Positions 36,654-57,290 of a DNA stretch of 64,000 nucleotides are shown piece by piece. Position numbers and translations under genes: made by a program. The notes under the pieces are model-generated. The model was not told the origin of the DNA, did no database searches, and saw only the letters and a list, made by a program, of their open reading frames with translations. The stretch lies in contig CAVYTA010000006.1 of the NCBI GenBank assembly GCA_963771355.1, forward strand, positions 2,112,001-2,176,000. The letters run 5' to 3'. Source of the DNA: an uncultured Candidatus Rokubacteria bacterium. GTDB taxonomy: Bacteria > Methylomirabilota > Methylomirabilia > Rokubacteriales > CSP1-6. How positions within the stretch are numbered: position 1 is the first letter of the stretch; the number at the start of each line of letters is the position of its first letter.

Positions 36654-36743
36654 GGCCCTCGACAGGAGAGCGAAGTTGGGGCACAGTCTCCCCACACCGG
36701 AGCTGAGCCAGAGCTGACCCAGAGCCCCGAAGGAGCCGGCCCC

Positions 36744-38069: not shown

Positions 38070-38077
38070 GGAGCGCC

Positions 38078-38446: not shown

Positions 38447-38472
38447 CTTGGGCGCGGCCGGATCCGTATCGT
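38443..38472 (+). promoter_or_regulatory. Possible sigma70 promoter (TTGACT-18-TATCGT) for the diiron oxidase unit
   Basis: Hexamers overlap the cupin stop. SD (gaggag) precedes ATG 38518. Confidence 0.4.
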
Positions 38473-38517
38473 CGGACCAGCCGTGACCGCCACCGAGTGA
38501 GCGAGAGGAGAGCCTCC

Positions 38518-39201: not shown

Positions 39202-39203
39202 GC

Positions 39204-40057: not shown

Positions 40058-40843
40058 GTGAGCGTCCTGACCCGAGTTTGGAACGCGATACGCCGTCCCC
40101 GGCGGACGGTCTCGAGCGTGGAGCTGCTCCAGCGCGCGGAGCGCTGCCGGCGCGAGGGCCGCTTCGAGGAGGGGGCCGCGCTGGTTCGCGAGGCGCTCGG
40201 CCGGGAGCCGCGCAGCACCCTGGCCCATCTCCTCGCCGGGTATCTCCATGCCGCTCTCCGCGATCCCCAGGCCGCCGGCGCCGCCTTCCGCGCCGCCCTG
40301 GCGCTGGACCCCGAGCACCCGCGCGCCATGCTGGGGCTGGCCCGGATCGCCCTCGAGGGGGGCGATGCCGGGGCCTGCCGGCAGCTCCTGGAACGCTCGC
40401 TCCGGGTCTACCCGGACTTCCCCGAGGCCCATGCGCTGCTCGACGCGGTGGGCGCGGTGCCCAGTGTCTCGGCGCCGGAGACGCCCACCGCCGCCCCCGC
40501 CATGGCGCGGCTCAGCCTGGTGCCCCGGCCCGAGGGCAGCCGGGAGTGCTTCCTGATGCACCCCGACGGAAGCCTGGTCTTCGCGCATCCCGCCACCGCG
40601 ACGCGTGAGGCCCTCGGCGCCCACCTCGCGCGCGTGGTGAGTCTGGCCGGCGCCACGCTCGCCCGCGCCGGGCTCGGACCGCTGCGGCACGGCGCGGTGG
40701 CCGCCAATCCCGGCACCACCTTTGTCGAGGCCGACGCGCGCCTCATCCTCGCGCTCACCCTCCCCCCGGAGGTGCCGGTGGCCGAGGGCCAGCGGCAGGC
40801 CACCGAGCTGTGGAAGCGCTTTGTTGCGGCGGGGGCCGCTTGA
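40058..40843 (+). CDS. TPR protein with C-terminal Roadblock/LC7-like domain
   Basis: About 3-4 N-terminal TPRs. The C-terminal region (CFLMHPDGSLV...LARAGLGPL) follows the Roadblock pattern. TATGAT -10 lies 6 nt before the GTG. Confidence 0.6.
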   Translation: MSVLTRVWNAIRRPRRTVSSVELLQRAERCRREGRFEEGAALVREALGREPRSTLAHLLAGYLHAALRDPQAAGAAFRAALALDPEHPRAMLGLARIALEGGDAGACRQLLERSLRVYPDFPEAHALLDAVGAVPSVSAPETPTAAPAMARLSLVPRPEGSRECFLMHPDGSLVFAHPATATREALGAHLARVVSLAGATLARAGLGPLRHGAVAANPGTTFVEADARLILALTLPPEVPVAEGQRQATELWKRFVAAGAA

Positions 40844-41277
40844 CCTCGGAGGCCCGGGCCCCCGCCGGGGTCCCGCCGGGAGGGGTGCCCTCACGCGCGG
40901 CCGCCGTCCGCAGCATCCTGGGCGAGGTGGCCAAGATTGCCGGGGTCCGGGGCGGACTCCTCATCGCCTCCGACGGCTTCGTGATCGCGTCGACGCTGCC
41001 CGCCGAGGTCGCGGTGGATCCCCTGGCCGCGCTCGCCACCACCCTGGGCCGTGAGCTGGAGCTCGGCACCGGTCGGTTGAATCGGGGCAGCTTCTCGAGC
41101 GCCTTCTTCTCGGCGGACGAGGGCAGCGTCTTTCTCGGGCCGAGCCCGCTCGGATTCGTGCTCGTGCTGATGGAGCGCGGTGGCGAGCTGGGGACGGTAC
41201 GCGGAGAGTTCCGGAAGGCGCTGGATACCCTGCATGCCGCCTGGCGCGCGGGCGATCACACCGGCAGCAAGCTCTAG
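40840..41277 (+). CDS. Roadblock/LC7 (MglB-like) domain protein
   Basis: L......GVRGGLLIASDGFVIAS, LAAL, G.F and G.VR motifs; TTG start overlaps the upstream stop. Confidence 0.85.
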   Translation: MTSEARAPAGVPPGGVPSRAAAVRSILGEVAKIAGVRGGLLIASDGFVIASTLPAEVAVDPLAALATTLGRELELGTGRLNRGSFSSAFFSADEGSVFLGPSPLGFVLVLMERGGELGTVRGEFRKALDTLHAAWRAGDHTGSKL

Positions 41278-41283
41278 CGCGAG

Positions 41284-43527
41284 CTAGCTGACGGTCACCC
41301 GGAGGACTTCCTCGACGGTGGTGACCCCCTCGAGGACCTTCTGTAGTGCGTTCTGGCGGAGGGTCTTCATGCCCTGGCTGAGCGCCATCTCCCGGATGTC
41401 GGCGGTGGGCGCATTGTGCAGCATCAAGTCCCGCAGCTCTTCCGTGATCGGCATGACTTCGTAGATGGCCACGCGACCTTTCATGCCCGTGAAGCTGCAG
41501 GCCGGGCACCCCTTGCCCTTGTAGAGCTGGACTTTGCCCAGGCCCTGGAGGACATGGCCGTAGGGGACCAGAGTCTCCTCGTCGGCGTCGTAGGGCTGCT
41601 TGCAGTCCTTGCAGATCTTCCGGCCCAGCCGCTGGGCCAGGATGAGGGTCAGCGCGGAGGAGACCAGGAAGGGCGGGATGCCCATGTCGAGCAGCCGCGC
41701 CACCGTGGACGGGCAGTCGTTGGTATGGAGCGTGGTGAGCACGAGGTGGCCGGTGAGGGCGGCGCGGATGCCGATCTGCGCCGTCTCGAGGTCGCGCGTC
41801 TCGCCGACCAGGATGATGTCGGGGTCCTGGCGGAGGAATGAGCGCAAGGCGGCGGCGAACGTCCGCCCGATCCCCTCGTTGACCTGCACCTGATTGACGC
41901 CCTTGAGGTTGTACTCGACCGGATCCTCGGCGGTCATGATGTTCACGTCGGGGGAGTTGATGGTGTGGATGGCCGAGTAGAGCGTGGTGGTCTTGCCCGA
42001 TCCGGTCGGCCCCGTGATGAGGATCATGCCGTAGGGCTGATGGATGGCCCGCGTGAACTGCTCCAGGCTCCAGGGATCGAAGCCGAGCAACGCGAGGTCG
42101 AGCTGGAGCGCGTCCTTGTCCAGGATGCGCATGACGGTCTTCTCGCCGAAGATGGTCGGCAGGGTCGACACGCGGAAGTCGATCTCGCGCTGGTTGTAGC
42201 GCAGCTTGATGCGGCCGTCCTGAGGCAGCCGCCGCTCGGCGATGTCGAGATTCGACATGATCTTCACGCGGGACGTGAGCGCCGCCTCCAGCCGCTTGGG
42301 CGGGGTCATGATCTCGTGCAGCACGCCGTCGACGCGGAAGCGCACCCGGAAGACCTTCTCGTAGGGCTCGAGGTGGATGTCGGAGGCGCCGCGGCGGATG
42401 GCGTCCACCAGGATCATGTTGATGAGCCGGACCACCGGGGCCTCGTCCGCCGACTCCTTCAGCTCGAAGATGTCGGCCTTGGCCCACTGTTCCTCCTCGC
42501 CTTCGACGACCTCGACGTCGCCCCCGGCCGCGGCCATCTCCGAGAGCACCTCGGCGAGGCCGCCGGTCTGGGCCTCGTACAGCCGCTCGATGGCCTGGCG
42601 AATGGCCCCCTGGGAGGCCACCACCGGCACCACGGTGAGGCCGGTCATGAACGCGACATCGTCAAGCGCGAAGACATTGGTGGGATCGGCCATGGCCAGG
42701 ATGAGCGAGTTCTCCGTCCGCTTGATCGGCAGCACCTCGTACTTGCGCGCGATCTGGGAGGAGATGAGCTCCACGACCTCGGGATCCACATCGAGCTGGG
42801 ACAGCGTGATGGCCTGGAGCCCGTACTGCCTGGAGAGGAAGTCGGTGAGCTGCTCCTCCCGGAGAAGGTCGAGCCGGACGAGGACGGTTCCGATCTTCTC
42901 GTTCGTGCCGCGCTGGCTCGCGAGGGCCTGGGTGAGCTGCTCCTGGGTGATGAGGCCGGCGGCCACGAGCAGATCGCCCAGCTTGCCCATCCGGTGCACC
43001 ACGCGCTCGTCGCCCTTCCCTGCCCCGGGAGCGGGCGCGGGAGCCGGAGGCTCACCGTGCCCCGTGGGCGGGGTGTCGGGCGCCGGCCGGCCGGCCGTGG
43101 TGGGGGGCTCGGGGGCCGGCGGGGGCACCACCGGCGGGGTCGCCACCTCTGCCGCAGACGCGGATACGGGCACGGCGGGCGGGGCCGCGTCGGCGGGAAT
43201 GCGCCGACCGCCGCGGCGCGGCGCGGGGCGCTCGGGCTCGGCGCGCGCGGGCGGGGGGGTGGCCGCGGTCGAGGACGGCGCCTCCGGCGTCCCCTCGGCG
43301 CGCGGCGGCTCGACGGGTCCACCGTGAGCGGCCTCGATGCGTCGGACCACGTCGGCGTGCTTGTCGGCATCGCCGAGCTTGACGTAGATCTCCCGCAGGG
43401 CCTCGAGCGCGCCGACCTCGAGGGGATTGGCCTCGACGATCATCTCGAAGACCTGGGCGGTCTCCGTGAGCTCGCGCCGCTCCTGCGCGGAGAGAGCGCC
43501 CGACCCGGTCTGGTGGAGGACAGCCAT
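41284..43527 (-). CDS. pilB: Type IV pilus extension ATPase PilB with N-terminal helical extension, Pro-rich linker and MshEN domain
   Basis: ASDIH.EP, LDIAERRLPQDG, GPTGSGKTTT, LRQDPDII.VGE.RD, TGHLV..TLHTND and Zn-binding CxxC...CxxC motifs. Confidence 0.92.
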   Translation of the reverse strand: MAVLHQTGSGALSAQERRELTETAQVFEMIVEANPLEVGALEALREIYVKLGDADKHADVVRRIEAAHGGPVEPPRAEGTPEAPSSTAATPPPARAEPERPAPRRGGRRIPADAAPPAVPVSASAAEVATPPVVPPPAPEPPTTAGRPAPDTPPTGHGEPPAPAPAPGAGKGDERVVHRMGKLGDLLVAAGLITQEQLTQALASQRGTNEKIGTVLVRLDLLREEQLTDFLSRQYGLQAITLSQLDVDPEVVELISSQIARKYEVLPIKRTENSLILAMADPTNVFALDDVAFMTGLTVVPVVASQGAIRQAIERLYEAQTGGLAEVLSEMAAAGGDVEVVEGEEEQWAKADIFELKESADEAPVVRLINMILVDAIRRGASDIHLEPYEKVFRVRFRVDGVLHEIMTPPKRLEAALTSRVKIMSNLDIAERRLPQDGRIKLRYNQREIDFRVSTLPTIFGEKTVMRILDKDALQLDLALLGFDPWSLEQFTRAIHQPYGMILITGPTGSGKTTTLYSAIHTINSPDVNIMTAEDPVEYNLKGVNQVQVNEGIGRTFAAALRSFLRQDPDIILVGETRDLETAQIGIRAALTGHLVLTTLHTNDCPSTVARLLDMGIPPFLVSSALTLILAQRLGRKICKDCKQPYDADEETLVPYGHVLQGLGKVQLYKGKGCPACSFTGMKGRVAIYEVMPITEELRDLMLHNAPTADIREMALSQGMKTLRQNALQKVLEGVTTVEEVLRVTVS

Positions 43528-43545: not shown

Positions 43546-44028
43546 CTAGCGCTTCTTGGGTCCGATGTCGGTCCGGGCCTCGTCCGCGGTCAGCGGGGCC
43601 GCCAGCGCCCCCACCCGGCGCGGCTGGGTACGGGCCTCGGCGAGGACGGTCCCGATGGCGCGGCACGCCTCCTTCGCGAAGAGCCGCACCATGCCCACCG
43701 TGGTCCGATCGTCGAAGATCGCGAGCAGGATCGTCTCCTTGTCCACCGTGGAGACGTGGATACTCTCCCGCACGCCCTGGTGGAAGAGCACGGAGAATTC
43801 CGTCTCCCCCAGGAGCTCCGCGATGGCCGCGGTGGAGGAAAAGGCTCCCGCGGCCAGAGCACCGATGGACACCGTGTCGAAGGTCGGGCTCTTGCCGGTG
43901 GAGGCCAGGAGCTGTCCGCTCCGATCGATGAGCAGGGCCTCCGAGGCACTCGATTCCTCGAGGAAGCTCGAGAGCACCTGCCCGATGCGCGTCGCCTCGT
44001 TCTCGTGGATGACCAGGTCATGAAGCAT
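43546..44028 (-). CDS. mglB: MglB-type Roadblock protein (GAP of MglA)
   Basis: LLIDRSGQ, ALAAG.F..T..IA.LLGE.EF..LFHQG and GMVRL motifs match Myxococcus/Thermus MglB. Confidence 0.9.
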   Translation of the reverse strand: MLHDLVIHENEATRIGQVLSSFLEESSASEALLIDRSGQLLASTGKSPTFDTVSIGALAAGAFSSTAAIAELLGETEFSVLFHQGVRESIHVSTVDKETILLAIFDDRTTVGMVRLFAKEACRAIGTVLAEARTQPRRVGALAAPLTADEARTDIGPKKR

Positions 44029-44635
44029 TGCGCTGGACCTCCTGTTCCTGTCCGAACTCACTGAGGAGCACCATGCGGGATACCGTGTTGAGCGCGTCGA
44101 ACACGCCGGTCCCCTGGCTGGCCACCGTCTCGAAGGACGGCACGCGCCGGGCGCGGCGATTGAGGAGATACTCCATGTACGCGACGGGCGCGGCGTTGGG
44201 GAGGTCGCGCTTGTTGTACTGGATGACGCACGGGGTGCGGTCCAGCTCGTAGCTGTACTCGCGGAGGTTCTCCTCGAGGTTGCGAAAGCTCTCCACGTTC
44301 TCCTTCATGCGCTCGAACTGCGAGTCGGCCACGAACACGACGCCGTCGATGCCCCGCAGCACCAGCTTCCGCGTCATGTTGTAGTAGACCTGCCCCGGCA
44401 CGGTGTAGAGCTGGAACTTGGTCACGAACCCGCGCACGCTGAGCGAGGATACCGGCAGGAAGTCGAAGAAGATGGTCCGGTCGTCGCCGGTGGCGAGCGA
44501 GATCATCTTCCCCTTGTTGCCGTCGGGCAGCGAGCGGTGCACGTGCTGCAGGCTGGCCGTCTTGCCCGCCACCCCGGGGCCGTAGTAGACGACCTTGAAG
44601 TTGATCTCTTTCGCCGCGTAGTTGATGATCGACAT
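44018..44635 (-). CDS. mglA: MglA small Ras-like GTPase
   Basis: IN.K.VYYGPG.AGKT, DRT.FFDF (intrinsic Arg finger), TVPGQV.Y, G.DG.VFVADS and QYNKRD motifs. ATG at 44635. Confidence 0.95.
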   Translation of the reverse strand: MSIINYAAKEINFKVVYYGPGVAGKTASLQHVHRSLPDGNKGKMISLATGDDRTIFFDFLPVSSLSVRGFVTKFQLYTVPGQVYYNMTRKLVLRGIDGVVFVADSQFERMKENVESFRNLEENLREYSYELDRTPCVIQYNKRDLPNAAPVAYMEYLLNRRARRVPSFETVASQGTGVFDALNTVSRMVLLSEFGQEQEVQRNAS

Positions 44636-44646
44636 GGCTCCCGTTC

Positions 44647-46935
44647 TCAGACGGCGCGGAGCAGCCCCGCGGCCCGCTCGAGTTGCCGGTGCGCGAGGCC
44701 GGGCCGGTCCACCGACTGCCCGGCGGCCACGAGCACGCTGAATCGCCCGGGAACGCCCTTCACTGGCCGTACCACCAGCCGGCGCTCGTTCAGGCGGAAC
44801 ACCACGGACTGCAGCGCCCCCAGCGCGGGCTCGTCGCCCTCGAGGGTGAGCGCGCGGCAGACATCCACCGCGAAGCCGGCCACCGCCCGGCTGTCCTCGC
44901 CCGGCGCGAGGAACACGCACACCTCGGCACTCCCGGTGGAATCACGGAGCACGGTCGGGGCCACCCGCCCGAAGGCGTTCAGGTCTCCGGCCAGGAAGCC
45001 GAGGGACAGGGCCCCCGAGTCCCGTGTCTCGTAGTGCGAGCCGTTCCCCATCCGGTCGGACGCCTCCCGGCGCGCGGGGGACGCGGGATAGGCGAGGCGA
45101 TGCTCACGAGCGGCCTTGAGGCACACCAGCTCCAGCATGGCCAGCGAGCCCACACGGGCCACCGAGGCCACCATGACCGGTCCGCCCGAATCGACGGTGC
45201 CCAGCGGGGTGAGGATGATGGCCCCCTCCTCGCGACGGACCGTCAGCTGGTCCACCGGCCACGGAGCCTGCCCGCTCATGAGGAACGGCAGCGTGGAGGC
45301 CGCCGTCCGCAGCACGGAGGTGGTGGGCAAGGCGGAGGAGTTGAAGGTGAAGAGCGTCACGCCCTCGATGCTGGTGGAGCCCACCTCGAGCGCGCCGAAG
45401 GGCGTGAGCACGGCGGCGAGGCGACGCGACTGCCGTAGCCGATCCTCGGTGAGGGGGAGGGTGGGACGCGGTGTCTCGACGGGCGGCGGCGGCACGCGGG
45501 GCGCGGCGGCCAGGACGGGCTCGAGGCGAGACGGCGCCGCCACCGCCGGTTCCTCGAGCACGGGCGGCTCGATCGGAGCGGGCACCGCCGTCAGCTCCAC
45601 CTCCACGAAGAGAGGCTCCAGGGGAGGCGGTGGCACGTGGGGCACCTCGACGGGCGCCGGCTCGACGCGCGCGGACTCGAGGGCGTCGAGCTGCTCTTCG
45701 AACGCCAGCTGGGGAGCGAGGCCGTACTCGATCTCGCTCTCCACGAAGAGGAAGGGGGGGACGAAGTCGGTGGCGTCGGCCCGCGGCGGCTCGGCCTCGA
45801 GCTCGGCGTGGGGCGCCGCGGGCTCGGCAATCTCGACCGGAAGGATCGGCGATTCGGACTCGACCACGGGGTCCGGCATGACCGCGGCTTCCGTGCTGAG
45901 AGGCGCGGAGGCGGCGGCCGGAGCGGGCGGGGCCGGGGGAAGCTCCACCGGGAGCGGCTCCAGCGCCTCCACGGTCTCGGCTTCGAAGGGCTGGAAGGGC
46001 AGCGGGAAGCGCTCGATGCCCTGCACGTCCACCGCCGGCGTCGAGGCCGCGAACATCTCGGGGGGCAGCCGCCGCACGATCTCGTCGAGCGGGAGGACGA
46101 TGCGGCCCTCGGGAAGCCGGTCGCGCACGGTGGCCTCGTTCACCGCCAGGGCATGACGTGGAAACTGGTCCGCCACCTCGTCCCAGCTCACCGAGACGGC
46201 GCCATCCGCGAGCTGGGGCACCACCAGGCGGGTGGGCACCAGCAGATGTCCAGGCTCGAGCAGGTTCGCACCGAGCCGGTCAGGCGGAATGGTGAAGGTG
46301 CCGGCGGGGAGCTGGTCGGCGATGCGGGAGAACGGGATGGAGAGGACCTCCTCCACCCGCTCGGCGCCGCGCGGCGCGCCGCCGGAGATGGGCGACGGGG
46401 AGGACGACTCGGCCGACGCCACCGCAGGAACGCTCGGTTCCGGCGGCGGGGGCGGGACCATCTCCGGCATCTCCACGGGGAAACGGTCGAGGCGGGGATT
46501 GGCGTCGGCCGCCGCCGCCAGGGAAACGGATAGGGAGCCCCGCCGCCGAGCGCGCGGCGGCGCGTACATGGCGCGGAACGGGAGCACGAGCAGGGACACG
46601 CAGAAGAGCTGGAGGAGCGGCGCGGGCAGGTATTCCCAGGCCGCCACCGCGAAGGCGGCGGGAAAGGGCAGCGCCATCACCGCCGCGTACACCATGCCGG
46701 TGGCGGAGGCCAGCGCGGCATGGGCCACGAAGAGCAGCGCCACGATCCCGATGGCCTGGAGCGTGCTTGCCCGGGGGCAGCAGATCACGACCAGCAGCGT
46801 GTATACCACCGCCGGCGCCACGAGGGCCCCCCACCACGGCAGCGAGACGTCGGCGGTGGGCAGGAACGCGGACACCACCACCACCGCCACCGTGTACAGC
46901 ACCAGGTCCGCCACCGTCAGGATGAAGTTCTTCAT
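44647..46935 (-). CDS. Hypothetical membrane-anchored protein: ~4 N-terminal TMs, Pro/Glu-rich linker, C-terminal alpha/beta repeats (possibly degenerate Roadblock)
   Basis: Hydrophobic first ~120 aa, low-complexity middle, and two similar C-terminal modules (L.PFG/L.AFG...LT/VV.R....V.P....G.L). Confidence 0.7.
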   Translation of the reverse strand: MKNFILTVADLVLYTVAVVVVSAFLPTADVSLPWWGALVAPAVVYTLLVVICCPRASTLQAIGIVALLFVAHAALASATGMVYAAVMALPFPAAFAVAAWEYLPAPLLQLFCVSLLVLPFRAMYAPPRARRRGSLSVSLAAAADANPRLDRFPVEMPEMVPPPPPEPSVPAVASAESSSPSPISGGAPRGAERVEEVLSIPFSRIADQLPAGTFTIPPDRLGANLLEPGHLLVPTRLVVPQLADGAVSVSWDEVADQFPRHALAVNEATVRDRLPEGRIVLPLDEIVRRLPPEMFAASTPAVDVQGIERFPLPFQPFEAETVEALEPLPVELPPAPPAPAAASAPLSTEAAVMPDPVVESESPILPVEIAEPAAPHAELEAEPPRADATDFVPPFLFVESEIEYGLAPQLAFEEQLDALESARVEPAPVEVPHVPPPPLEPLFVEVELTAVPAPIEPPVLEEPAVAAPSRLEPVLAAAPRVPPPPVETPRPTLPLTEDRLRQSRRLAAVLTPFGALEVGSTSIEGVTLFTFNSSALPTTSVLRTAASTLPFLMSGQAPWPVDQLTVRREEGAIILTPLGTVDSGGPVMVASVARVGSLAMLELVCLKAAREHRLAYPASPARREASDRMGNGSHYETRDSGALSLGFLAGDLNAFGRVAPTVLRDSTGSAEVCVFLAPGEDSRAVAGFAVDVCRALTLEGDEPALGALQSVVFRLNERRLVVRPVKGVPGRFSVLVAAGQSVDRPGLAHRQLERAAGLLRAV

Positions 46936-46950: not shown

Positions 46951-47907
46951 TCAGATCACGCGGGCCAGGTCGGGAAGCAGCTTCTTGACGTAGTAGCGGA
47001 CCTTCCCCAGCGCCGCCGCGTCCTTGCACATCACGGCGAGCACCGCTGCCGGTCCCACGCGGTGCAGCAACACCGTGCCCTTCTCGTACTCGATGAGCAT
47101 GCCGCCGAGCGCGCCGCGGCCCAGCTCCCGGCCGATCCCATCCGAAGACTCCGCGAGACAGGCGGCCATGGCGGCGGCGACCTCCGCCTCCACGCCGATG
47201 TCCCCCGCGGACTCGATGAGGAAGCCTTCACGATCGCTGAGCGACGCCCAGTCGGCGCCCGAGACGGCCATGAACTGGGCCAGCATCGAGCCCAGGTCGA
47301 GGCCGGCCCACGATGCTGGCGTGGGAACCACAGCGGGCCGGCCGCCGGACCAGGCGGCCACCGCGGCCGCGACCTGCGGCTCAGGAGCACGCCGGATGGC
47401 GGGGATGGGCGGTGTCCAGGCCGGCGCGGCGGGGGGGGCGGAGGGAAGGACCGCCGCGGGCGTGACCCGGGCGGGCGCCACCGGCGCGCCGTTGGTGCGC
47501 GGCTCCTCGGCCCACGCCGCGGGGGCCCGTCGTGGCGCCGCGCCCGGGTTGAGCAGCTCCGACACCTTGCGCACCAGCTCCGCCGCCTCGAAGGGCTTGC
47601 GCAGCACGTCGTCCGATCGCGCCTCGGCCGCCTGCTCGAGGACGCTGGCATTGACGATCCCGGAGATCAGGAGCACGGGGGTCCGTCCGAGCCGCGGGTG
47701 GCTCTTCACGAAGCGGCAGATCTCGTAGCCGTCACGGTCCGGCATGACGACGTCGCACACCACCAGATCGGGCTGCTCGCGCTCGATCTGCGCGATGGCC
47801 TCGGTGCCCGAGGCCGCCGACACCACGTCGAGCTGCTTGGCGACCAGCGCGCGCTCCACCACCTTGCGCACGCTCAGGCTATCGTCGACGACTAGTACCT
47901 TTGCCAT
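46951..47907 (-). CDS. Response regulator: receiver + Pro/Ala linker + Roadblock/LC7 output domain
   Basis: Canonical REC (VDDS, CDVVMP, LIS, KPF). C-terminal ASLSDREGFLIES...IGRELGRG.L....IEY..G...LG.VR Roadblock motif. Confidence 0.85.
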   Translation of the reverse strand: MAKVLVVDDSLSVRKVVERALVAKQLDVVSAASGTEAIAQIEREQPDLVVCDVVMPDRDGYEICRFVKSHPRLGRTPVLLISGIVNASVLEQAAEARSDDVLRKPFEAAELVRKVSELLNPGAAPRRAPAAWAEEPRTNGAPVAPARVTPAAVLPSAPPAAPAWTPPIPAIRRAPEPQVAAAVAAWSGGRPAVVPTPASWAGLDLGSMLAQFMAVSGADWASLSDREGFLIESAGDIGVEAEVAAAMAACLAESSDGIGRELGRGALGGMLIEYEKGTVLLHRVGPAAVLAVMCKDAAALGKVRYYVKKLLPDLARVI

Positions 47908-47910
47908 GAC

Positions 47911-48717
47911 CTAGGCCTGCCCTTTCGCGGCGCGCTCGGGCGCCGTCTGTGTGGTCTCGAATGCCGCGCGGCCCTCGTCGATCCCCGCCGCGATGCGGAG
48001 CAGGAGCCGGTCGACGCTTCGATGGATGGTGCGCGGGAGCTTGACCGCTTGCTCGCGGGGCAGCGGGGTGAAGCAGAAATCCCCCCCGCCCTCCGCCTGT
48101 GAGGAGCACACGAGATCGGTGAACGCTGGCTCCCCGCTCTCGCCGCCGAACTCCGCGTGGACGAGCTGCCCACCCTCGAACTCCAGCGTGCCCGGCCCCG
48201 CCGTGAGCTCGAGAGCCAGCCGGCCCGTCTTGCCGCCCATGGCGATGGCCTGGGTCAGCGCGGGCAGGTCCATCACGTCCAGCGAGCCGCGCATCACCTG
48301 GAGGGCGGGCCCGGCGGGCGGGGCCGCCGGGGGCGGCGGCGGCGCGGAAGCCGACTCGCCGGCCAGCAGGGCGCGGACACTCTCGAGGAAGCCGACCACG
48401 CTCAGGTGGCCGGTGCAGAGCCGGTCCACCCCGGCCTCCGCCGCCTGCCCGGCGATGTGCCGCTCGAGCCCAGCCAGGAGGAGGAACGGGATGTCCCCCG
48501 TCTTGGGATCGCTCCGGACTATGCCGAACAGCTCGCAGCCGTCCATGTCGTCCACCCGGGCCTGGGTGACGATGATGTGCGGGCGATCCCACTCGAGCTG
48601 CGTCAGGGCGAACGAGCCGCTCGCCGCGACCGACACCTCGTAACCGGCTCCCTTCAGCGCGCGCTCGAACGCGCCGCGGCTGTCCGGCTCGGGATCAACC
48701 AGCAAGACCTTAGACAT
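47911..48717 (-). CDS. Atypical receiver + DUF4388/PATAN-like domain protein
   Basis: REC fold with degenerate active site. C-terminal GSL....LP.L.Q.....GKTG.L....G.L.F..G.L.HA...G..F.F pattern. Confidence 0.75.
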   Translation of the reverse strand: MSKVLLVDPEPDSRGAFERALKGAGYEVSVAASGSFALTQLEWDRPHIIVTQARVDDMDGCELFGIVRSDPKTGDIPFLLLAGLERHIAGQAAEAGVDRLCTGHLSVVGFLESVRALLAGESASAPPPPPAAPPAGPALQVMRGSLDVMDLPALTQAIAMGGKTGRLALELTAGPGTLEFEGGQLVHAEFGGESGEPAFTDLVCSSQAEGGGDFCFTPLPREQAVKLPRTIHRSVDRLLLRIAAGIDEGRAAFETTQTAPERAAKGQA

Positions 48718-49186
48718 GTCTCCTCTCCAGGTGGGACGCGAGGAGCGCGTCCACGTCGAACAGCGGGACGTCCTGGTTCTCGAGGCGCGCGAGACCGCGC
48801 AGCCAGCGCCGCTCCGGGGCGCTGTATGCCTCGGGCAGCGCGCTGATCGCGCTCGACGGAAGGGCGGTCAAGGTCACGACCACGTCGGTGAGGAGCGCCC
48901 CCGAGAGACTGACGCCCGCCACCAGCAGGAGTACGCGGCCGCGCGGGCCGCCCACGGGGCCGTCCCATGCCGGAAAGCCCAGGAGCGCGCGCAGGTCGAG
49001 CACGGGATACGGCACGCCCAGGAAGACAACCGGCGCGCCCGCGCCCCCCTCGTCGCGCAGCAGGTGCTTCACGCGCGCCGCCTCCACCGCGTACCGGCGG
49101 CCGTGCACGCTGAAGAGCACGCCCCGGCCGTGGAGCGTGGGCGCCGTGCGGCGCCGGGGGGCGAGATGGCTCGGGCTAAGAGGCAT
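48710..49186 (-). CDS. CheW-like adaptor (divergent)
   Basis: F......YAV....V, PVLDLR.LLG and L.DV..LL motifs; adjacent to cheB and cheA. Confidence 0.7.
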   Translation of the reverse strand: MPLSPSHLAPRRRTAPTLHGRGVLFSVHGRRYAVEAARVKHLLRDEGGAGAPVVFLGVPYPVLDLRALLGFPAWDGPVGGPRGRVLLLVAGVSLSGALLTDVVVTLTALPSSAISALPEAYSAPERRWLRGLARLENQDVPLFDVDALLASHLERRHV

Positions 49187-50288
49187 GGCCCACCTTCAGC
49201 TGGTGGCTCAGGAGGTCACCCACGCAGGCCAGCACGGTCTCGGGCAGGCCCGAGAGCGGCACCATGGCGTCCACGCAGCCCATGTCCGCCGCCGCCCGTG
49301 GCATCCCGTACACCACGGAGGAGGCCTCGTCCTGTGCGATCACGATGCCGCCGCTCTTGCGGATGGCGGCGGCTCCCAGCGCGGCGTCGCGGCCCATGCC
49401 GGTGAGCACCACCCCGATGGCGAGCGGTCCCGCGTGCTCCGCCACCGAGGTCATGGCGAGGTCGGCCGAGGGCGAGTCCTCCGAGGGGAGCTGGGCGGGC
49501 CGAAGCATCACCTCACCGCGCGGCCCCACCGTGAGATGCTGCGAGCCCGGGCACACGCTCACCACGCCGCGGGCGAGATGATCGCCGGCGGCCGCCTCCC
49601 GCACCGTGATGCTGGAGCGCTCGCCGAGCAGGCGCGCGAGGGCCTGGGTGTACGGCGCCGGCATGTGCTGCACCACCAGCACCGCCGCGGGCAACTCCCG
49701 CGGCATCTCGGGGATGAGCCCGAGGAGGGCGGCGGGCCCGCCGGTAGACGCGGCGATCACCACGCAGGGGGTCCAGCCGTCGGAGCCGGCCGACATCGCG
49801 AAGGCGGCGAGTCCCGGATGCGAAGCGCCCGCCGGCCTCTCGCCCGGGCGCACGGCGGTGATCCGGGCCGGGCGCACGCGGGCCGCGGCCAGGATCTTCC
49901 GGACGATCTCGCTGGCGAGCGCGGCCAGCCCCGGGTCCACGCCCCAGGATGGCTTGGCCACCACGTCCACCGCGCCCGCCTCCATCGCGCGAATGGCCGC
50001 CTCGCCGCCCTCGGGCGTGGTCGCGCTCATGACCACCACGGGAATCGGATGCACGGCCATCACCCGGCCAATGGTGTCGATGGCGTCGCTGGCGTCCATG
50101 CCGACGTCGATCACGATCACGTCCGGCAGGCGCCGCGTCAGTGCGCGCAGCACCTGGTCGGCGTCCGCGGCCATCCCCACCACCTCGAGCCGAGAATCCG
50201 CCGTCAGCGTGCGGCGCAGCGCGCCCCGCATGGCGCGGGAATCGCCCGCCACCAGCACCCGCACCGGCGCCGCCGCGGGCGCGGTCAC
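49176..50288 (-). CDS. cheB: Chemotaxis methylesterase CheB (REC + esterase)
   Basis: Catalytic ASTGGP, VQHMP and LTGMGRD motifs, QDE.SSVVYGMP, and an N-terminal receiver. Confidence 0.92.
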   Translation of the reverse strand: MTAPAAAPVRVLVAGDSRAMRGALRRTLTADSRLEVVGMAADADQVLRALTRRLPDVIVIDVGMDASDAIDTIGRVMAVHPIPVVVMSATTPEGGEAAIRAMEAGAVDVVAKPSWGVDPGLAALASEIVRKILAAARVRPARITAVRPGERPAGASHPGLAAFAMSAGSDGWTPCVVIAASTGGPAALLGLIPEMPRELPAAVLVVQHMPAPYTQALARLLGERSSITVREAAAGDHLARGVVSVCPGSQHLTVGPRGEVMLRPAQLPSEDSPSADLAMTSVAEHAGPLAIGVVLTGMGRDAALGAAAIRKSGGIVIAQDEASSVVYGMPRAAADMGCVDAMVPLSGLPETVLACVGDLLSHQLKVGHAS

Positions 50289-53062
50289 CGCGCGCCTCCC
50301 CCCGGAGTACGCGCGGAGGCCAGCCCCGCGACGAGCGCCACGAACGCGCGCTCGTCCACCGGTTTCGTGACGTAGTGCTCCACCCCCAGCCGGCGCGCGA
50401 GCTCCAGATGCTTCTCCCCCGCCCGCGTGGTGAGAATGACCACCGGGATCGCCCGCGTCTCGGGGCGGCGGCGGAGATCCTGGACGAGCTCGAAACCGTT
50501 GACCCGCGGCATCTCGAGATCGGTGACCACGACGTCCACCATGGTGTCGGCGAGGAGGTTCAGCGCCTCGCCGCCGTCCGCCGCCATCCGCACCTCGAAG
50601 CCCGCGCGCTCGAGCATGAGCCCCACGAACTTCCGCACGCTCAGCGAGTCGTCCACCAGGAGCACGCGCGGCGCCTCGCGCGGCGGGGCGCCCGGCCGGA
50701 TCGGCACCGGACGCGGCGCGCCGACCCTCGGCGCATCCCCGCGCCGCGTCTCGGCGAGCCGCGTGGGGTCGAGCAGCAGGATGACCCGGCCCTCGCCGGA
50801 GACCGTCGCGCCCGACCAGGGACCGGCGCCGTCGAGGAAGGCGCCCAGGCCCTTGATGACGATCTCGGACTTGCCGAGCAGCTCGTCCACCACCGCCGCC
50901 ACCAGCCGGCGGCCCGCCCGGAGCGCCACCACCGAGAGCCGCCGGCCCGGCGGGTCACCCGCCACCTCGAGGACCCGGTCGAGCCGGAGCAGGGGGAGAT
51001 CCTGTCCCTCGATCGCCACCGTCTCGCCGTCCGGACCCGTCCGGATCTCGTCCGGACGCGCGGAGTACAGCCCGCGGATCGCGGTCACCGGGATGGCGAG
51101 CTCCACCGCTCCCACGCGCACCCCCAGCGCCTCGCCGATCAACACGGTGAGGGGCAGCTTGAGCGTGAAGCGCGTGCCGACCCCCACCTCGGTCTCGATG
51201 TCGATCTCGCCGCCGAGCCGGCGGACATTGGTCCGCACCACGTCCATGCCCACGCCGCGGCCCGCCGCGGACGTGGCCACCTCCGCGGTGCTGAAGCCCG
51301 GCAGGAACACGAGGTCGAGCGCCTCGCGCTCGCTCAGGTAGGCGGCCGCCACCGCGTCCAGAAAGCCGCCGCGGACGGCGCTGGCCCGGAGCCGATCCGT
51401 GTCGAGGCCCCGCCCATCGTCCTCCACCTCCACGTACACCACGCCGCCCACGTGATAGGCGCGGAGGGACACGGTGCCATGCTCGGCCTTGCCTCGCCCG
51501 CTACGCTCGGCCGCGGGCTCCAGCCCGTGGAACACCGCGTTCTGCACGAGGTGCAGCAGCGGGTCGGCGATCTGCTCGATGATGGTGTTGTCGAGCTCGA
51601 CGCCCTCGCCCGCCACCTCGAGGTCCACCATCTTGCCGGAGGCCCGCGCGAGCTCCCGAACCTGGCGGGCGTGTCGGGCGAATAGCCGGCCGATGGGGAC
51701 CATGCGCGAGCGCGTGATGTCGCTTCGGAGTCGCCCGGTGAGGCGCTGCACCTGGGCGGTGTCCTCACGGATGGTGCGAACCAGGCCGGCGAGCTGGGTC
51801 TGCACCTCGGCCACGTCGGCGGACACCTCCGCCACGCGACGGGAGAGGATGTTGAAATCGTCGTAGCGGTCGAACTCCAGCTCCTCGAAGTTGTGGAGGA
51901 AGGCGCCCGGGTGCGGCTCCGCGGGCGGCGCCCCCGCCCCGCCGCTCGACCCGTGGGCGGCCGGCACGGCGGCCAGCTGCGTGTAGCCGTGCTTGCCCTC
52001 GAAGGTCTGCACGGCCTGCGCCATGCGCGAGCGGCTCCAGAGGAGGAGCTCGCCCACCCGGTCGAGCTGGGTGAGGTGGTCGTCCATGCGTGAGCGCGCG
52101 ATGACCAGCTCACCCACCAGATTCATCAGCGAGTCGAGCCGCTCCACGCTCACGCGGATGCTGGCGCGCGCGGACGGCGCCGCGCTCCACGCCGCCACCG
52201 CGGGCTCCATGGCCTCCGCGGTCGACGCGGTGTCGGCGGGGTCCGCCCCGGCCAGGGCCGGCTCCGCCGTAGTCGCCGCGGGAGCGCCCAGCGCGGCCTC
52301 GACGAGGGCGCGGGCGCGCGTCACCGAGGACTCGAGCCCGGCCGGACGCTCGGTGGCGGCGGCGAGCATGAGGCGCACGGCGTCGGCGCTGGCGAACACG
52401 GCCTCCACCGTGGCGGGCGTGAAGCGCCGCCGGCCCTCGCGCACCGCCACGAGGAGATCCTCCACGCGGTGGGCGAAGTCCCCGATGGTGGGACAGCCTA
52501 CCGTGTAGGCGGCGCCCTTGAGGGTGTGGAAGGCGCGGAACAGCGTCGCCACCTCGGCGTCGGGGTGGGCGCCGCGCTCGAGCGCCAGCAGCGCGTGGGT
52601 GATGGTCTCGAGATGCTCGATCGCCTCCGGGCCGAAATACTCGAGGACATCCCCGTTCTCGGCATAGAACCGGGCCAGCTCGTCGAGCACCCGCCCGCCC
52701 GCGCCCGGAGGGGGCGCGGCTTCCGGCTCGGCGGGCGGCACCGTCTCCGGCCCCACCCGCTCCAGCAACTCGCGCAGCCGCACCACCGCGTGGTCGAGCC
52801 CGTCGGCGAACGGGCTGCGCTCCTCCGGGGCCAGGCTCTGCACGTGCTCCAGCATCGCCTCCAGCTCGGCCGCTTCCGCGGCCAGCTCCGGGAAGCCGTG
52901 CAGCGCGGCGGCGCCGCGGAGCCGGTGGGTCACCACCAGCAGGGGCTCGACGTCACCGCCTTCACGCAGACTGCCGGCGCCTTCCTCGAGGGTGGACACG
53001 GTGTCCCACGCCTCCATGAGGAAGATGCTCAGCAAGAACTCGCGATCCGGGTGCTCCGTCAT
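50285..53062 (-). CDS. cheA: CheA/ChpA-like hybrid histidine kinase (2 Hpt, dimerisation, HATPase, CheW, REC)
   Basis: HRLRGAA and HTLKGAA Hpt motifs, IRV..ERLD.LMNLVGEL, DPLLHL..NA..HG, DDGRG, FLPGFST, GRGVGMDVV, and C-terminal DLEMP receiver. Confidence 0.93.
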   Translation of the reverse strand: MTEHPDREFLLSIFLMEAWDTVSTLEEGAGSLREGGDVEPLLVVTHRLRGAAALHGFPELAAEAAELEAMLEHVQSLAPEERSPFADGLDHAVVRLRELLERVGPETVPPAEPEAAPPPGAGGRVLDELARFYAENGDVLEYFGPEAIEHLETITHALLALERGAHPDAEVATLFRAFHTLKGAAYTVGCPTIGDFAHRVEDLLVAVREGRRRFTPATVEAVFASADAVRLMLAAATERPAGLESSVTRARALVEAALGAPAATTAEPALAGADPADTASTAEAMEPAVAAWSAAPSARASIRVSVERLDSLMNLVGELVIARSRMDDHLTQLDRVGELLLWSRSRMAQAVQTFEGKHGYTQLAAVPAAHGSSGGAGAPPAEPHPGAFLHNFEELEFDRYDDFNILSRRVAEVSADVAEVQTQLAGLVRTIREDTAQVQRLTGRLRSDITRSRMVPIGRLFARHARQVRELARASGKMVDLEVAGEGVELDNTIIEQIADPLLHLVQNAVFHGLEPAAERSGRGKAEHGTVSLRAYHVGGVVYVEVEDDGRGLDTDRLRASAVRGGFLDAVAAAYLSEREALDLVFLPGFSTAEVATSAAGRGVGMDVVRTNVRRLGGEIDIETEVGVGTRFTLKLPLTVLIGEALGVRVGAVELAIPVTAIRGLYSARPDEIRTGPDGETVAIEGQDLPLLRLDRVLEVAGDPPGRRLSVVALRAGRRLVAAVVDELLGKSEIVIKGLGAFLDGAGPWSGATVSGEGRVILLLDPTRLAETRRGDAPRVGAPRPVPIRPGAPPREAPRVLLVDDSLSVRKFVGLMLERAGFEVRMAADGGEALNLLADTMVDVVVTDLEMPRVNGFELVQDLRRRPETRAIPVVILTTRAGEKHLELARRLGVEHYVTKPVDERAFVALVAGLASARTPGGGAR

Positions 53063-53084: not shown

Positions 53085-54983
53085 TCAGGCCGCCAGCTTG
53101 AATCGGGACAGGGTCTGGGTGAGCTCCTCGGCCAGCCGCACCAGGTCCTCCACCGTCTTCCGGGTCTGGAGGACCCCCTGCTCGGTCTGGAGCGCCACCC
53201 CCGCGATGGCCTGCACGGCGACGCCGACGTGCTCGGCGCCCTTGACCTGCTCCTGCGCGGTCACCGAGATGTCCTGGGCCAGCCCGGCCGAGCGCTTCGA
53301 CACGTTGGCGATCTCGCGCAAGCTCTCGCCGGCCTGGGTGGTGACTCGATACCCGGTCTCGACCTCCCGGGTCCCCTCCTCCATGGCGATCACCGCCTGC
53401 TGGGTCTCGGACTGGAAGTTCTTGATGAGAACGGCGATGTCGCGGGTGGCCTTGGCCGACCGCTCCGCCAGCTTCCGCACCTCGTCGGCGACGACGGCGA
53501 ACCGGAGACCGGCCTCACCCGCGCCGGCCGCCTCGATGGCGGCGTTGAGCGCGAGCAAGTTGGTCTGCGCCGCGATGTCGTCGATGGTGTTGACGATCTC
53601 GGAGATCTCGAGCGAGCGGTCGCCGAGATTCTTGATCTTCTTGGAGATGCCCTGCACCTCGTTCCGGATCCGCTGCATGCTGTCGAGGCTTCGCTGCACC
53701 GCCTGCTCACCCTGCTGGGCGGCGTCGAGGCCCTGCCGGGCGGCGCGGGCGGAGTCCTCCGCGGTACCGGCCACGCGCCGGACCGAGGTGCCGAGCTGGT
53801 CCACGTTACCGGTGGCCTGCATGGCGTCGCGCGCCTGCGCCCGCGCGCCCGTCTCGATTTGCCCCATGGACACGATCATCTCGCTGGCGCTCGCCGACAC
53901 GTGATGCGCGGCCTGGCGCACGTCCAGCAGGAGGTGGCCGATCTCGCCCACCATGACGTTGATGGCGTCCACCACGCTGCCGAGCACATCGGAGGTCACG
54001 TCGCCCCGCTTGGTGAGGTCCCCATGGGAGACCTCCATGGCCACGTCGAGGAAGCGCGTGATGTTGGCCTGCAGGTCCTGGCGCTGCCGACGCTCGGCGT
54101 CGCGCTCGGCCACCGTCTGCACCAGCGAGCGGAGGCGGACGATGGAGTCGTTGAAGGTGGAGGCGAGCTGACCGAGCTCGTCGCGCGACTGGACCGGGGC
54201 GAGCTTGGAAAGGTCGCCCTTACCAACCTGCTCCGCCACCCGCACCAGCTGCCGGATGGGCCGCGTGATGCGCCGGGCGAAGACCACCGCCGCCAGCACC
54301 GCCGCCACCGCGAAGCCGCCGAAGGTCAGGAGGAGGGTGGAGCCGGCCTGCGCGGCGGCGGCGGTGATGATGGTCTTGTCCATGCCCACGCGCACGGTGC
54401 CGAGCTGGCCCGCGAGCACCGGTACCGCGATGTCGATGACCTCCCGCTCCCCGCGTCCGGCGGGATCCTGGTAGCGAACCTCCTGCACCTTCTGCGCCCA
54501 ATCACCCGGCACGAGGTTCTGATCCACCAGCCCGGGCGGCACCAGGGGCGCGAAGGTGTGGGCGATGAGGGTCCGCTGCTGGTCGTACACCATGACGTAG
54601 GCCACGCCGCTGATGCCGGCCACCTGGTCCACCTGCGCCTGCACGGTGGAGGCGTCGCGGGTGAGGACGAGGTCCACCGCGGTGTTGGCGAGGCCTCTGG
54701 CGATCGCCGAGCCCTTGGACGTGAATTCCTCGGTGAGGTTGGTCCGGAGCGACTGCACCGAGATCGTCCAGGTGAGCGCCGCGAGGGGAACCAGGATGAG
54801 AAGCAGGAACGCCATGATCTTGGCGAGGAGGCCGAATCGGCCCGACCATCGGAACCCGCCCTCGGAACGACTCGTCCGCGGGGGCGACGGCTCCACCGGC
54901 GGATCACTTGTGACTGGGACGGCGGCCGCCGCCGCGCGCCCCTGCTCCCTCTTGATCCGCTCCCACTCCGTCATCGCTGCCAT
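53085..54983 (-). CDS. Methyl-accepting chemotaxis protein (PilJ-like)
   Basis: Two TMs flanking a ~130 aa periplasmic domain, HAMP (P...L.......GDL...DELG.L...FN), and signalling tip [36 protein letters not shown]. Confidence 0.93.
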
Positions 54984-54998: not shown

Positions 54999-56324
54999 CT
55001 ATGCCTTGGCGGCGGCGTTCCAGTCCTGGACCGGAACCCAGCGGCCGTTCTCGACGCGGGTGAAGTAGACGCTGTCCAGCCCCTGATGACGCTCGGGCCC
55101 GAAGTTGAGCGGGGCGGCGATGCCCAGGTCCACGTTCCGCATCCCCTCGAGCGCCTGCCGGAGGGCGACGCGCGTGGGAGCCGGGCCCGCACGGCGCAGC
55201 GCTTCCACGATCACCTTGGCGTTCACGTAGCCCTCGAGGCTGATGAAGCTGAACTTCTGCGGGGCGTACTTGGGATCGCGGAGGCTCTCCGGCACGGTGG
55301 GCTTGTGACGCTCCATGAGGGCGCGGTACTCCACCACCGCGGGCAGCGTGAGGTCGTCGTAGCTCGGCACCACCTGCGAGTTGACGAGGCCGGTGGTGTA
55401 CTCGCGGCCGGATGTCTTGCCGTGCTGGACGAGCAGGGCGAGCATGGCGTCCGAGCCGACGAAGGAGACGTTGGCGATCGGCACACTCCAGCCGAGATCG
55501 CGCGCGGTGCGCACGAAGGCCCCGCAGCCCTGGTAGGCTCCGGTGCAGAGGACCACGTCCACCCCCGCGCGGCGCAGCTCGCCCACCGCGGGGCTCATGT
55601 CCTCCTCGAACTTCGCGCCGCGCGTGTAGGTCGCCTCCGCCACGATCCGCGCGTTGCGCAGGGCGAGCCCCCGGGCCACGCCGTCGGTGCCGCTGCGGCC
55701 GTACGCGTCCACCTGGTAGTAGACGCCGAACTTGCGGGCCCCCTGCTCCCAGAAGCGGTCGACGAGCGCCATCATCTCCTGGCGATAGGAGGCGCGGATG
55801 TTGAAGACGTGCTCGCCGTACGGCGCCTCGCGCTGCGGCTGCGCCCCGGTGAAGTTCCCCACCAGGATCACCTGCTGGGCGGCATAGCGCTTGATGAGGG
55901 GCAGCGCGCGGGTGAGGGTGGGCGTGCCCACGTAGTTCGACAGGAAGAAGACGTTCTCCTTCTCGATGAGCTGGAGCGTGTTGCGGATGCACGGGATGGG
56001 CTCGTAGCCGTCGTCGATGGCCATCACGCCGATCGAGCGGCCGTGCACTCCGCCCCGGGAGTTGATCTCGTCGTAGTAGGCCTGCGCCCCCCGGTAGAAC
56101 TCGGTACCCAGACCCGCGGCGGTGCCCTTGAAGGCGGCGCTCATCCCGATGCGGATGTCCTTGGCAGAAACGCCGGGAACACTGGCGGCGGGGATCTCGG
56201 GCGCCCCCGGGCGCGCCGGCGGGGCCGGCTTGATCGCCTGCGCCCAGCCGGACGTGGCTCCACTGCTCACCATCCCGCCGGTGAGCCCTGCCGAGAGAAG
56301 TCGAAGCACCGTGCGCCGCTTCAT
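54999..56324 (-). CDS. Periplasmic solute-binding protein (type I, Liv-like) with twin-arginine signal
   Basis: MKRRTVL signal; IRIGMSA...G, N..GGV.GR, DDGYEP, VGTP, RASY..E and EGY..A motifs. No permease or ATPase nearby. Confidence 0.88.
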   Translation of the reverse strand: MKRRTVLRLLSAGLTGGMVSSGATSGWAQAIKPAPPARPGAPEIPAASVPGVSAKDIRIGMSAAFKGTAAGLGTEFYRGAQAYYDEINSRGGVHGRSIGVMAIDDGYEPIPCIRNTLQLIEKENVFFLSNYVGTPTLTRALPLIKRYAAQQVILVGNFTGAQPQREAPYGEHVFNIRASYRQEMMALVDRFWEQGARKFGVYYQVDAYGRSGTDGVARGLALRNARIVAEATYTRGAKFEEDMSPAVGELRRAGVDVVLCTGAYQGCGAFVRTARDLGWSVPIANVSFVGSDAMLALLVQHGKTSGREYTTGLVNSQVVPSYDDLTLPAVVEYRALMERHKPTVPESLRDPKYAPQKFSFISLEGYVNAKVIVEALRRAGPAPTRVALRQALEGMRNVDLGIAAPLNFGPERHQGLDSVYFTRVENGRWVPVQDWNAAAKA

Positions 56325-56342: not shown

Positions 56343-56828
56343 CTAGTGGTTCCCGGCCGTCCGGGGCGCGCCGGTGAGCGCGGCCCGAAGGGCCTCGAGC
56401 ACCGCGCCCGCGTCGAGCACCGTCACTTCACCCGCCGTCCCCGCCGCCACTCCGGCCGCGAGTCGACCCCAGCGCCGCCGGGCCGGCTCTCCCAGCGGAG
56501 ACGGCGTCCCGAGGGGCTCGAGGCCGAGCACGGCGTCGATCGCCGCCGCCGCCGCCCACGGACCGTGGGCGAGGACGATGCCGAGCGTCTGCCGCGCCGG
56601 CTCGCGGGCCGGCAGGCCCAGCAGCGGCCCCAGGTCCACGATCGGCATCACCGCCCCGCGGAGATTGGCCAGTCCCATCAGAAAGGGCGGGGCCAGCGGC
56701 ACCGGGGTGAGGCCGTCGAAGACGACCACCTCCCGAGCCTGGCCCACCTCCACCGCGAAGCGCGATCCCGCGAGCATGAACACGCACGCCCGGGCGCCGG
56801 TGGGCCGTTCGACGACGGCCTCGCTCAT
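56343..56828 (-). CDS. cheW: CheW adaptor protein
   Basis: F.L....FAV.....REV, TPVP.AP....GL.NLRG...PIVDL motifs. Confidence 0.9.
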   Translation of the reverse strand: MSEAVVERPTGARACVFMLAGSRFAVEVGQAREVVVFDGLTPVPLAPPFLMGLANLRGAVMPIVDLGPLLGLPAREPARQTLGIVLAHGPWAAAAAIDAVLGLEPLGTPSPLGEPARRRWGRLAAGVAAGTAGEVTVLDAGAVLEALRAALTGAPRTAGNH

Positions 56829-56835
56829 CGCGCCG

Positions 56836-57198
56836 CTACCGCGCGAAGCGGCGCACGGCCTCGAGAAGCTGCTCCGCCGTGAAGGGCTTGCCGAGATACT
56901 CGTCCGCCCCCTGCCGCTTGCCCCACACCCGGTCGCTTTCCTGGTTCTTCGAGCTGACCACCACCACCGGGGTGTCCTTGGTCCGCCCGTCGCGCTTGAT
57001 GCTGCGGAGGATCTCGTAGCCGTTGCGCTTGGGCATGACGATGTCGAGCAGCAGCACGTCGGGCTGCTCCTCGGCGACTTTGTCCTCCAGACGATCGCCG
57101 TCGATCAACGTGACCACCTTGTGGCCGGCGCTCCGGAGAATGCCTTCCATCATCGTCAGCTCGGAATACGCGTCATCGACGACCATCACCTTGCCCAT
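56836..57198 (-). CDS. Single-domain response regulator (CheY/PilH-like)
   Basis: VVDD, LLDIVMP..NGY, SSKNQESDR.WG.RQGA..Y..KPF motifs (PilH-like). SD GGAGG upstream. Confidence 0.9.
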   Translation of the reverse strand: MGKVMVVDDAYSELTMMEGILRSAGHKVVTLIDGDRLEDKVAEEQPDVLLLDIVMPKRNGYEILRSIKRDGRTKDTPVVVVSSKNQESDRVWGKRQGADEYLGKPFTAEQLLEAVRRFAR

Positions 57199-57290
57199 CG
57201 CGGTTCGATTCCTCCCTCTCTTTCGGGTGCGCGCGGCCTGCTGGCGGAGCCCGGACGGGGCTGGACAGAGACCCAACCGCCCGGAAAGTC

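Follow-up and report, generated by a model that had tools for sequence, protein, structure and literature searches.

A receiver-Roadblock fusion in a Rokubacterial chemosensory operon, probably CheA-coupled and probably not a direct activator of MglA

It is still an open question how chemosensory phosphorylation is relayed to the polarity switch formed by MglA and MglB, and the locus described here, part of a window of 64,000 nucleotides from an uncultured Candidatus Rokubacteria bacterium, raises it directly, as its operon unites all candidate parts and allows a small in-vitro test. One gene of this operon encodes a receiver domain joined by a linker to a Roadblock domain (Table 1), and the original prediction saw in its product the direct molecular link from CheA to the GTPase. 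Proteins of the same domain architecture, Response_reg plus Robl_LC7, are mentioned in one sentence, with neither context nor function, by Wuichet and Sogaard-Andersen (2014, PMC4316618; five BLAST matches), the only paper found with both Pfam names. Our literature search returned no study of the fusion; the architecture has been named automatically by JGI and also occurs in ESM Atlas clusters from Methylomirabilota, Acidobacteriota and Chloroflexota. In this work we propose that the fusion serves a chemosensory operon of the type IV pilus type as its output regulator, and that its Roadblock would dock on a scaffold and reach MglA indirectly, a reading to which we give a probability of about 0.55, slightly better than even.

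Table 1. Genes and domains of the receiver-Roadblock locus, with positions in the window.
Feature	Position	Strand	Remark
Single-domain CheY-type receiver	56836..57201	(-)	opens the run
CheW	56343..56828	(-)	
Periplasmic binding protein (Peripla_BP_6)	54999..56324	(-)	likely ligand input
Chemoreceptor (sCache-HAMP-MCP)	53085..54983	(-)	sole MCP found in genome
Hybrid CheA (two Hpt, kinase, CheW, C-terminal receiver)	50285..53062	(-)	sole CheA found in genome
CheB methylesterase	49176..50288	(-)	
Second CheW	48710..49186	(-)	
Pseudo-receiver fused to DUF4388/PATAN	47911..48717	(-)	without acceptor Asp
Receiver-linker-Roadblock fusion gene	46951..47907	(-)	318 aa, ATG start; the feature under study
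Receiver domain of the fusion	47548..47907	(-)	aa 1-120; D8, D9, D52 (acceptor, 47752-47754), S82, K104 intact
Pro/Ala-rich linker of the fusion	47299..47547	(-)	aa 121-203; neither sequence nor length conserved
Roadblock/LC7 domain of the fusion	46954..47298	(-)	aa 204-318
762-aa membrane protein, candidate scaffold	44647..46935	(-)	
MglA, group-1 type	44018..44635	(-)	single copy in genome
MglB	43546..44028	(-)	probable ATG at 44028, open frame from 44061; small residues at 61/64/65/68
PilB/GspE-type ATPase, extra N-terminal region	41284..43527	(-)	
Stand-alone Roadblock	40810..41277	(+)	opposite strand; stays with mglB in relatives
TPR protein	40058..40843	(+)	conserved beside stand-alone Roadblock

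The reading frame of the fusion gene is real and intact (GC3 0.91 against GC2 0.52). Pfam places Response_reg at aa 4-115 of the encoded protein (E 1.6e-23) and Robl_LC7 (PF03259) at aa 209-292 (E 1e-8; 35.2 bits, with a cut-off of 23), and since both domains are present in 119 of the 120 best homologues listed, the fusion is not due to chance. The phospho-acceptor receiver had been predicted to be intact, and it is: D8, D9, D52 and K104 are invariant in 121/121 aligned close homologues, S82 is kept in 99% of them, and D52 is unchanged across 52 distant members; the aromatic switch residue that normally precedes the lysine is replaced by a valine (V101), as in 95% of the close homologues. The Pro/Ala-rich composition of the linker was borne out as well (25 Ala and 19 Pro, 53% Ala+Pro), its length of about 83 aa being slightly greater than the ~70 aa first given. 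The Roadblock domain proved to be full, both by its Pfam score and by a structural model (pLDDT 85, pTM 0.81) that matches solved Roadblocks, those of Asgard and MglB equally well, with TM-scores of 0.81-0.85 (0.81 to MglB). The homologues carry the name Methylomirabilota, and loci of a scan, described below, the name Rokubacteria. Three proteins (P0137, P0143 and P0151) are variants with two receivers ahead of a diverged Roadblock.

The gene belongs to a run of 13 same-strand genes, from cheY to pilB, in which all 12 gaps measure -11 to +22 bp, in the order cheY, cheW, a binding protein gene, an MCP gene, hybrid cheA, cheB, a second cheW, a pseudo-receiver-DUF4388 gene, the fusion gene, the gene of a 762-aa membrane protein, mglA, mglB and pilB. 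The predicted placement between the che genes and mglAB holds overall, the direct neighbours being the pseudo-receiver-DUF4388 gene upstream and the membrane protein gene downstream. The mglA product belongs to the Myxococcus/Thermus type (E 9e-70), and the MglB adjoining it, whose gene mglA precedes, is a true MglB (E 4e-25). The host genome (99.8% complete) holds one CheA, one MCP and one MglA; no flagellin was found in it, and a CheR domain occurs only within one 1400-aa frame. Genes of the pilB/pilT/pilM type lie ~40-55 kb from the operon, and the fusion is hence encoded with hybrid CheA, CheW, MCP and CheY in a genome with pili genes and no flagellum. We take this CheA system to be of the pilus type, from its architecture and the general classification of such systems. 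A pilT gene is present in 18/18 tested genomes, including genomes without the operon, and thus gives no indication that pili in particular are the target. All 30 bins of the locus are covered by RNA-library contigs from a single study, which, with no silent stretch as comparison, does not prove transcription; promoter and terminator scans of the locus stayed at shuffle level.

Several neighbours of the fusion show features of their own. The DUF4388 protein has a receiver devoid of both the acceptor Asp and the Lys, which groups with the fusion receivers in a tree, and its DUF4388 part was undetected in several MglA-less loci. CheB is present though the genome is without a chemotaxis CheR, and many related operons lack cheB and the second cheW. 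The PilB-type ATPase carries an N-terminal helical extension, and a second, closely similar copy is located next to pilT (C6:2100055); its gene is absent from several related operons. The MglB of relatives that bear RomR (L115-L118) has an acidic C-terminal helix, which the window MglB lacks. Further along the window, at 35450-39970, dehydrogenase E1-like, aminotransferase, cupin, PqqC/TenA-like, Rieske and heme-binding-like genes were assigned by eye, and are unrelated to the fusion.

Input from the kinase is suggested by two observations. The first receiver helix is the kinase-docking surface, and helix 1 of the fusion receiver agrees with that of CheA's own receiver at 8/12 positions, the best value among the 62 other receivers of the genome (the next best reaches 6/12, and 60 are at 5 or fewer), identity over the whole receiver being ordinary (37 positions vs 42-44 for several others). 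This common helix-1 motif recurs in loci of four phyla. Secondly, 49 of 121 phylum genomes have the Roadblock domain of the fusion, and all 49 also have a CheA of this type, which is found in 50 genomes in all. Because of the helix-1 match and this co-occurrence, CheA likely phosphorylates the fusion at D52, and a CheA-coupled, phosphorylatable regulator, whose gene shares an operon-like run with those of a group-1 MglA and a true MglB, is supported by the sequence comparisons.

The distribution of the receiver beyond Rokubacteria bears on what its tail contributes. A locus scan, which used a 24-row alignment subset (the broad alignment had no sufficiently conserved stretch), kept 80 of 574 loci, which is no census: 27 encode the fusion, 27/27 with cheA upstream and 18/27 with mglA downstream, and all 18 of the latter show the Rokubacterial gene set. 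The remaining 53 of the 80 listed loci are from Nitrospirota, with a same-clade receiver and no Roadblock. Nitrospira receivers nest in the fusion-receiver clade and, in the few proteins examined, bear a long charged helical tail that looks like a coiled coil by eye; MglA was found in 0/7 Nitrospira genomes. Because Nitrospirota carry this same-clade receiver on a different tail, the receiver is, to judge from these loci, the fixed part of the che system and the tail is exchangeable. After the receiver-tail gene, two Nitrospira loci (L064:9965-11284 and L043:9965-11200) have, in turn, an Hpt-like gene, an AAA ATPase gene and one that is HD-GYP-like, all assigned by eye. Four loci (L032, L034, L044 and L066) are titled as other taxa and hold the Rokubacterial operon at Rokubacterial similarity, so their titles may be mislabelled. 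Fusions do occur in other phyla: in a search of Deinococcota with one query, which is insensitive (12/151), 12/12 matches were fusions, with mglA elsewhere in the genome. In Trueperaceae, Thermoanaerobaculia and one further bacterium mglA is present and unlinked to the fusion locus (5/5), as it is in 11/11 further Deinococcota genomes, and in the fusion genomes of Deinococcota and Acidobacteriota alike mglA is unlinked.

An exchangeable tail on a receiver that tracks CheA in 49/49 genomes would also suit a modest role, in which the fusion acts as a tethered phosphate sink or localisation factor, its Roadblock only placing the receiver by CheA, with no downstream output. The valine in place of the aromatic switch residue would agree with such a role, as would the 83-aa flexible linker, which makes allosteric coupling doubtful. 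However, a C-terminal receiver within CheA itself and a separate CheY are already available, and the basic face of the Roadblock is conserved across phyla, with a constraint that varies with mglAB; we consider a mere sink quite improbable.

If the Roadblock does have an output, the most immediate candidate is MglA itself. According to the original prediction, the Roadblock dimer binds MglA directly, as GAP or competitor, switched by receiver phosphorylation, which would suit a protein with the MglB fold, encoded in one operon-like run with the sole MglA and the sole CheA of the genome, and with a profile match of its Roadblock to MglB of 96.7%. In the Roadblock tree, from which a short fragment and a duplicate row with masked letters had been left out, fusions and MglB lie on one side of a branch at 73/84, being neither shown nor rejected as a group. 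Membership of MglB by descent was rejected, as nine MglB rows form a 99/98 branch that includes none of the 22 fusion rows; furthermore, the NCBIfam MglB model matches the window MglB and is absent among the 25 best listed for the fusion, which is not a single-domain protein, and a true MglB is already encoded beside mglA.

The putative contact surface also differs. MglB has been reported to contact MglA via small helix-2 residues, and the A68/72R exchange (M. xanthus A64/G68R) to lower affinity tenfold (PMC3199381). In a profile alignment, position 64 (MglB numbering) is Ser/Ala in 22/22 MglB and Glu/Asp in 29/34 fusions, and on this MglA-contact face the window fusion has E253 at MglB A64, C250 at 61 and E261 at 72, with position 61 mostly Cys and position 72 mostly Glu among the 34 fusions; bulky residues occupy the same face in fusions of other phyla. 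In favour of direct binding, positions 57 and 68 stay small (A246 and G257 here; 68 is Gly in 29/34). Across the 52 distant members the MglA-facing surface is variable, and R304 and E273 are each kept in 49/52; together with K302 and K308 these conserved residues lie on or near the last helix. In addition, the C-terminal helix of MglB is described as underlying its exchange activity (PMC6785124), and because the fusion protein ends with the last Roadblock helix, it is without this element.

Distribution provides the third line of evidence. Among the 121 phylum genomes searched, MglA was found in 38 of the 49 fusion genomes and not found at E <= 1e-30 in the other 11. A sister family yielded no MglA in 5/5 genomes (94-98% complete), with only 17-20-bit partial matches, and in these five no Roadblock other than the fusion exceeds the Pfam cut-off; the Arf-family matches in MglA-less genomes sit in 822-987-aa frames. 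In one genome (G092) a 4-Mb contig encloses the operon, and the next 17 kb contain none of mglA, mglB and pilB; in two others (G108 and G060) mglB is the very next gene after that of the membrane protein, mglA being absent from this place. Two of the 13 MglA-less genomes yielded an MglB, and the fusion is intact in the 11 without it. The MglA-less genomes form at least three separate groups, yet are kin, and their assemblies are 86-98% complete. Their Roadblock is under purifying selection (dN/dS 0.15-0.26 in 7 overlapping pairs) and under tighter constraint in the mglAB-linked loci (0.02-0.07 in 4 pairs), locus L010 being outside this set. Two loci (L008:15211-15941 and L009:3477-4285) keep mglB and the free Roadblock, with mglA, pilB and the TPR gene missing from the locus, and MglB may have an MglA-independent role there.

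Descent, surface and distribution all speak against the fusion Roadblock as a GAP for MglA, and it is probably not one; we likewise hold direct binding of MglA, as GAP or competitor, to be improbable. The proposed direct link from CheA to the GTPase is thus supported in its first half, a CheA-coupled phosphorylatable regulator, and not supported in its second, direct action on MglA (clade, Glu253, no C-terminal helix, 11/49 genomes in which MglA was not found); of the name first given to the protein, a possible phosphorylation-gated MglB-like regulator, the MglB-like part is not supported for a Roadblock that lies outside the MglB clade, has Glu253 at A64 and is kept where MglA was not found. 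The fusion survives in those genomes and therefore likely docks on a membrane scaffold, instead of being a direct GTPase switch. Two results weigh against this docking reading: MglA is present in most fusion genomes (38/49; 11/11 and 5/5 elsewhere), and the lower dN/dS in mglAB-linked loci fits a closer tie to MglA/MglB. The latter is the main result in favour of some such tie, and, with RomR not found in the order, an indirect link of the fusion to MglA in the host genome is possible.

One form of this tie would be a phosphorylation-gated binder of MglB, which recruits or sequesters the MglB dimer, or lowers GAP activity in a mixed dimer, so that CheA would control MglA one step removed. The K104/R106/R110 surface of MglC, another Roadblock protein, is reported to bind RomR (PMC10329633), and the fusion residues K302 (34/34), R304 (34/34) and K/R308 (33/34) are in register with it, the register being taken from the profile-match ends. 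At the positions of MglC's MglB-binding FDI patch the fusions have acidic or aromatic residues, E227 in 29/34 and F229 in 20/34 (FDI-like residues vary in other phyla), and R115 is present in 22/22 MglB rows. A RomR-like C-terminus has strong matches in 24/121 genomes and in just 1/49 fusion genomes, with none in the order Rokubacteriales and none in the host genome; its query (L098) we presume to be RomR from its architecture and motifs. The lower dN/dS in linked loci would agree as well. Against this, MglB has Glu at 120 in 22/22 rows, the fusion is intact in 11/13 MglA-less genomes that are without MglB, and the stand-alone Roadblock kept with mglB is another candidate for the role. The fusion Roadblock as MglC itself was rejected, with a p-AU of 0.031 for a fusion plus MglC-like clade, in a test where three MglC-like orphans were labelled by inference and the simpler tree model rejects some true clades; the MglC score is 21 bits vs 46 for MglB. 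The balance leaves an MglB-binding role possible and rather doubtful. As to RomR, fusion and RomR receivers form separate branches (SH-aLRT 95 and 97) in a quick tree of 127 rows, which gives their relation no support either way, and the fusion C-terminus holds a Roadblock and no RomR-C helix.

We therefore return to the preferred reading, in which the Roadblock is likely a docking module and not a GTPase activator. A candidate scaffold is encoded directly downstream: the 762-aa protein has five N-terminal hydrophobic segments, an acidic Pro-rich middle (37 Asp/Glu vs 7 Lys/Arg at aa 301-500) and a predicted C-terminal tandem Roadblock-like domain (aa 497-762), modelled as two repeats with a Roadblock-like order of elements (pTM 0.87). 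No Pfam or NCBIfam match was obtained for this protein, and its Roadblock-like domain gave an hhalign probability of 1.3% and no Foldseek match at E <= 0.001, with one Ragulator chain at E 0.052, so that the fold call is based on the model's secondary structure and weak matches. Relatives of the protein have a repeated conserved middle block. Its gene follows the fusion in 10/10 MglA-less loci with room and is kept in every Rokubacteriales locus with room. In one clade its C-terminal domain and E227/F229/E253 of the fusion diverged together, as a single event. The membrane protein was not detected in 5/5 loci of other phyla and thus cannot be the partner everywhere.

The mechanism that we propose would start from an intact acceptor site, a Roadblock fold and the strict co-occurrence with one CheA type. 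D52 would be phosphorylated by CheA; the Roadblock would dimerise and its basic last-helix face would bind a partner, as MglC does with RomR. In Rokubacteriales this partner might be the 762-aa membrane protein, which would keep the regulator close to the pilus motor at the pole; this is the weakest step. Where mglA and mglB are in the same operon, the scaffold would position the MglA/MglB switch in place of RomR, and the docked Roadblock dimer on the polar scaffold would steer the pilus motor. A bolder and only tentative extension is that Rokubacteria replaced RomR by an operon-encoded, Ragulator-like Roadblock assembly (the fusion, the membrane-anchored tandem Roadblock, MglB and the free Roadblock), in which the phosphorylated fusion directly re-positions or gates the MglB GAP. 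If true, a single operon would wire a chemosensory kinase to a Ras-like switch of polarity and so contain the step that is still missing between Frz and MglA in Myxococcus. The comparative data indicate that the fusion belongs to the sensory system, that its tail is exchangeable and that several lineages can dispense with MglA.

As an architecture, the fusion has been catalogued before; what is new here is its occurrence in MglA-less lineages, the Nitrospira tail swap, its almost complete failure to co-occur with RomR and the helix that matches CheA. Like MglB (M. xanthus 6IZW/6H5B, T. thermophilus 3T12), the fusion has a Roadblock fold, an arginine (R304) corresponding to MglB R115 and, in this genome, a locus shared with mglA; unlike MglB, it falls outside the MglB clade, has Glu on the MglA-binding helix and no C-terminal helix, bears a receiver, and is kept without MglA. 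MglC is described as a non-GAP Roadblock adaptor between RomR and MglB (PMC4719450, PMC10329633), and the fusion resembles it in an altered MglA face, a basic last-helix triad in register and, in Rokubacteria, an acidic residue at the MglC D26 position; nevertheless, it does not form one clade with the MglC-like orphans, it has a receiver attached and is a che-operon gene, and RomR was not found in these genomes.

RomR consists of a receiver, a Pro linker and an acidic C-terminal helix (PMC3441718, bioRxiv 2024.02.20.581209), and its phosphorylation is said to occur "by an unknown mechanism" (PMC3441718). The fusion shares with it the receiver and Pro-rich linker, its receiver being 42% identical to that of a RomR-like protein from the same phylum, and the two have a nearly exclusive distribution; in contrast to RomR, its output is a Roadblock and not RomR-C, and it is encoded beside its kinase, whereas the kinase of RomR is unknown. 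Finally, in PatA-type (PATAN-receiver) cyanobacterial pilus outputs the PATAN domain has been reported to bind PilB or PilC (bioRxiv 2021.06.11.447907). The output folds differ, Roadblock against PATAN; in both cases, however, a receiver joined to a putative docking domain is the output of a pilus-type che operon, and a DUF4388 gene lies upstream of the fusion here and in 11/12 Deinococcota loci.
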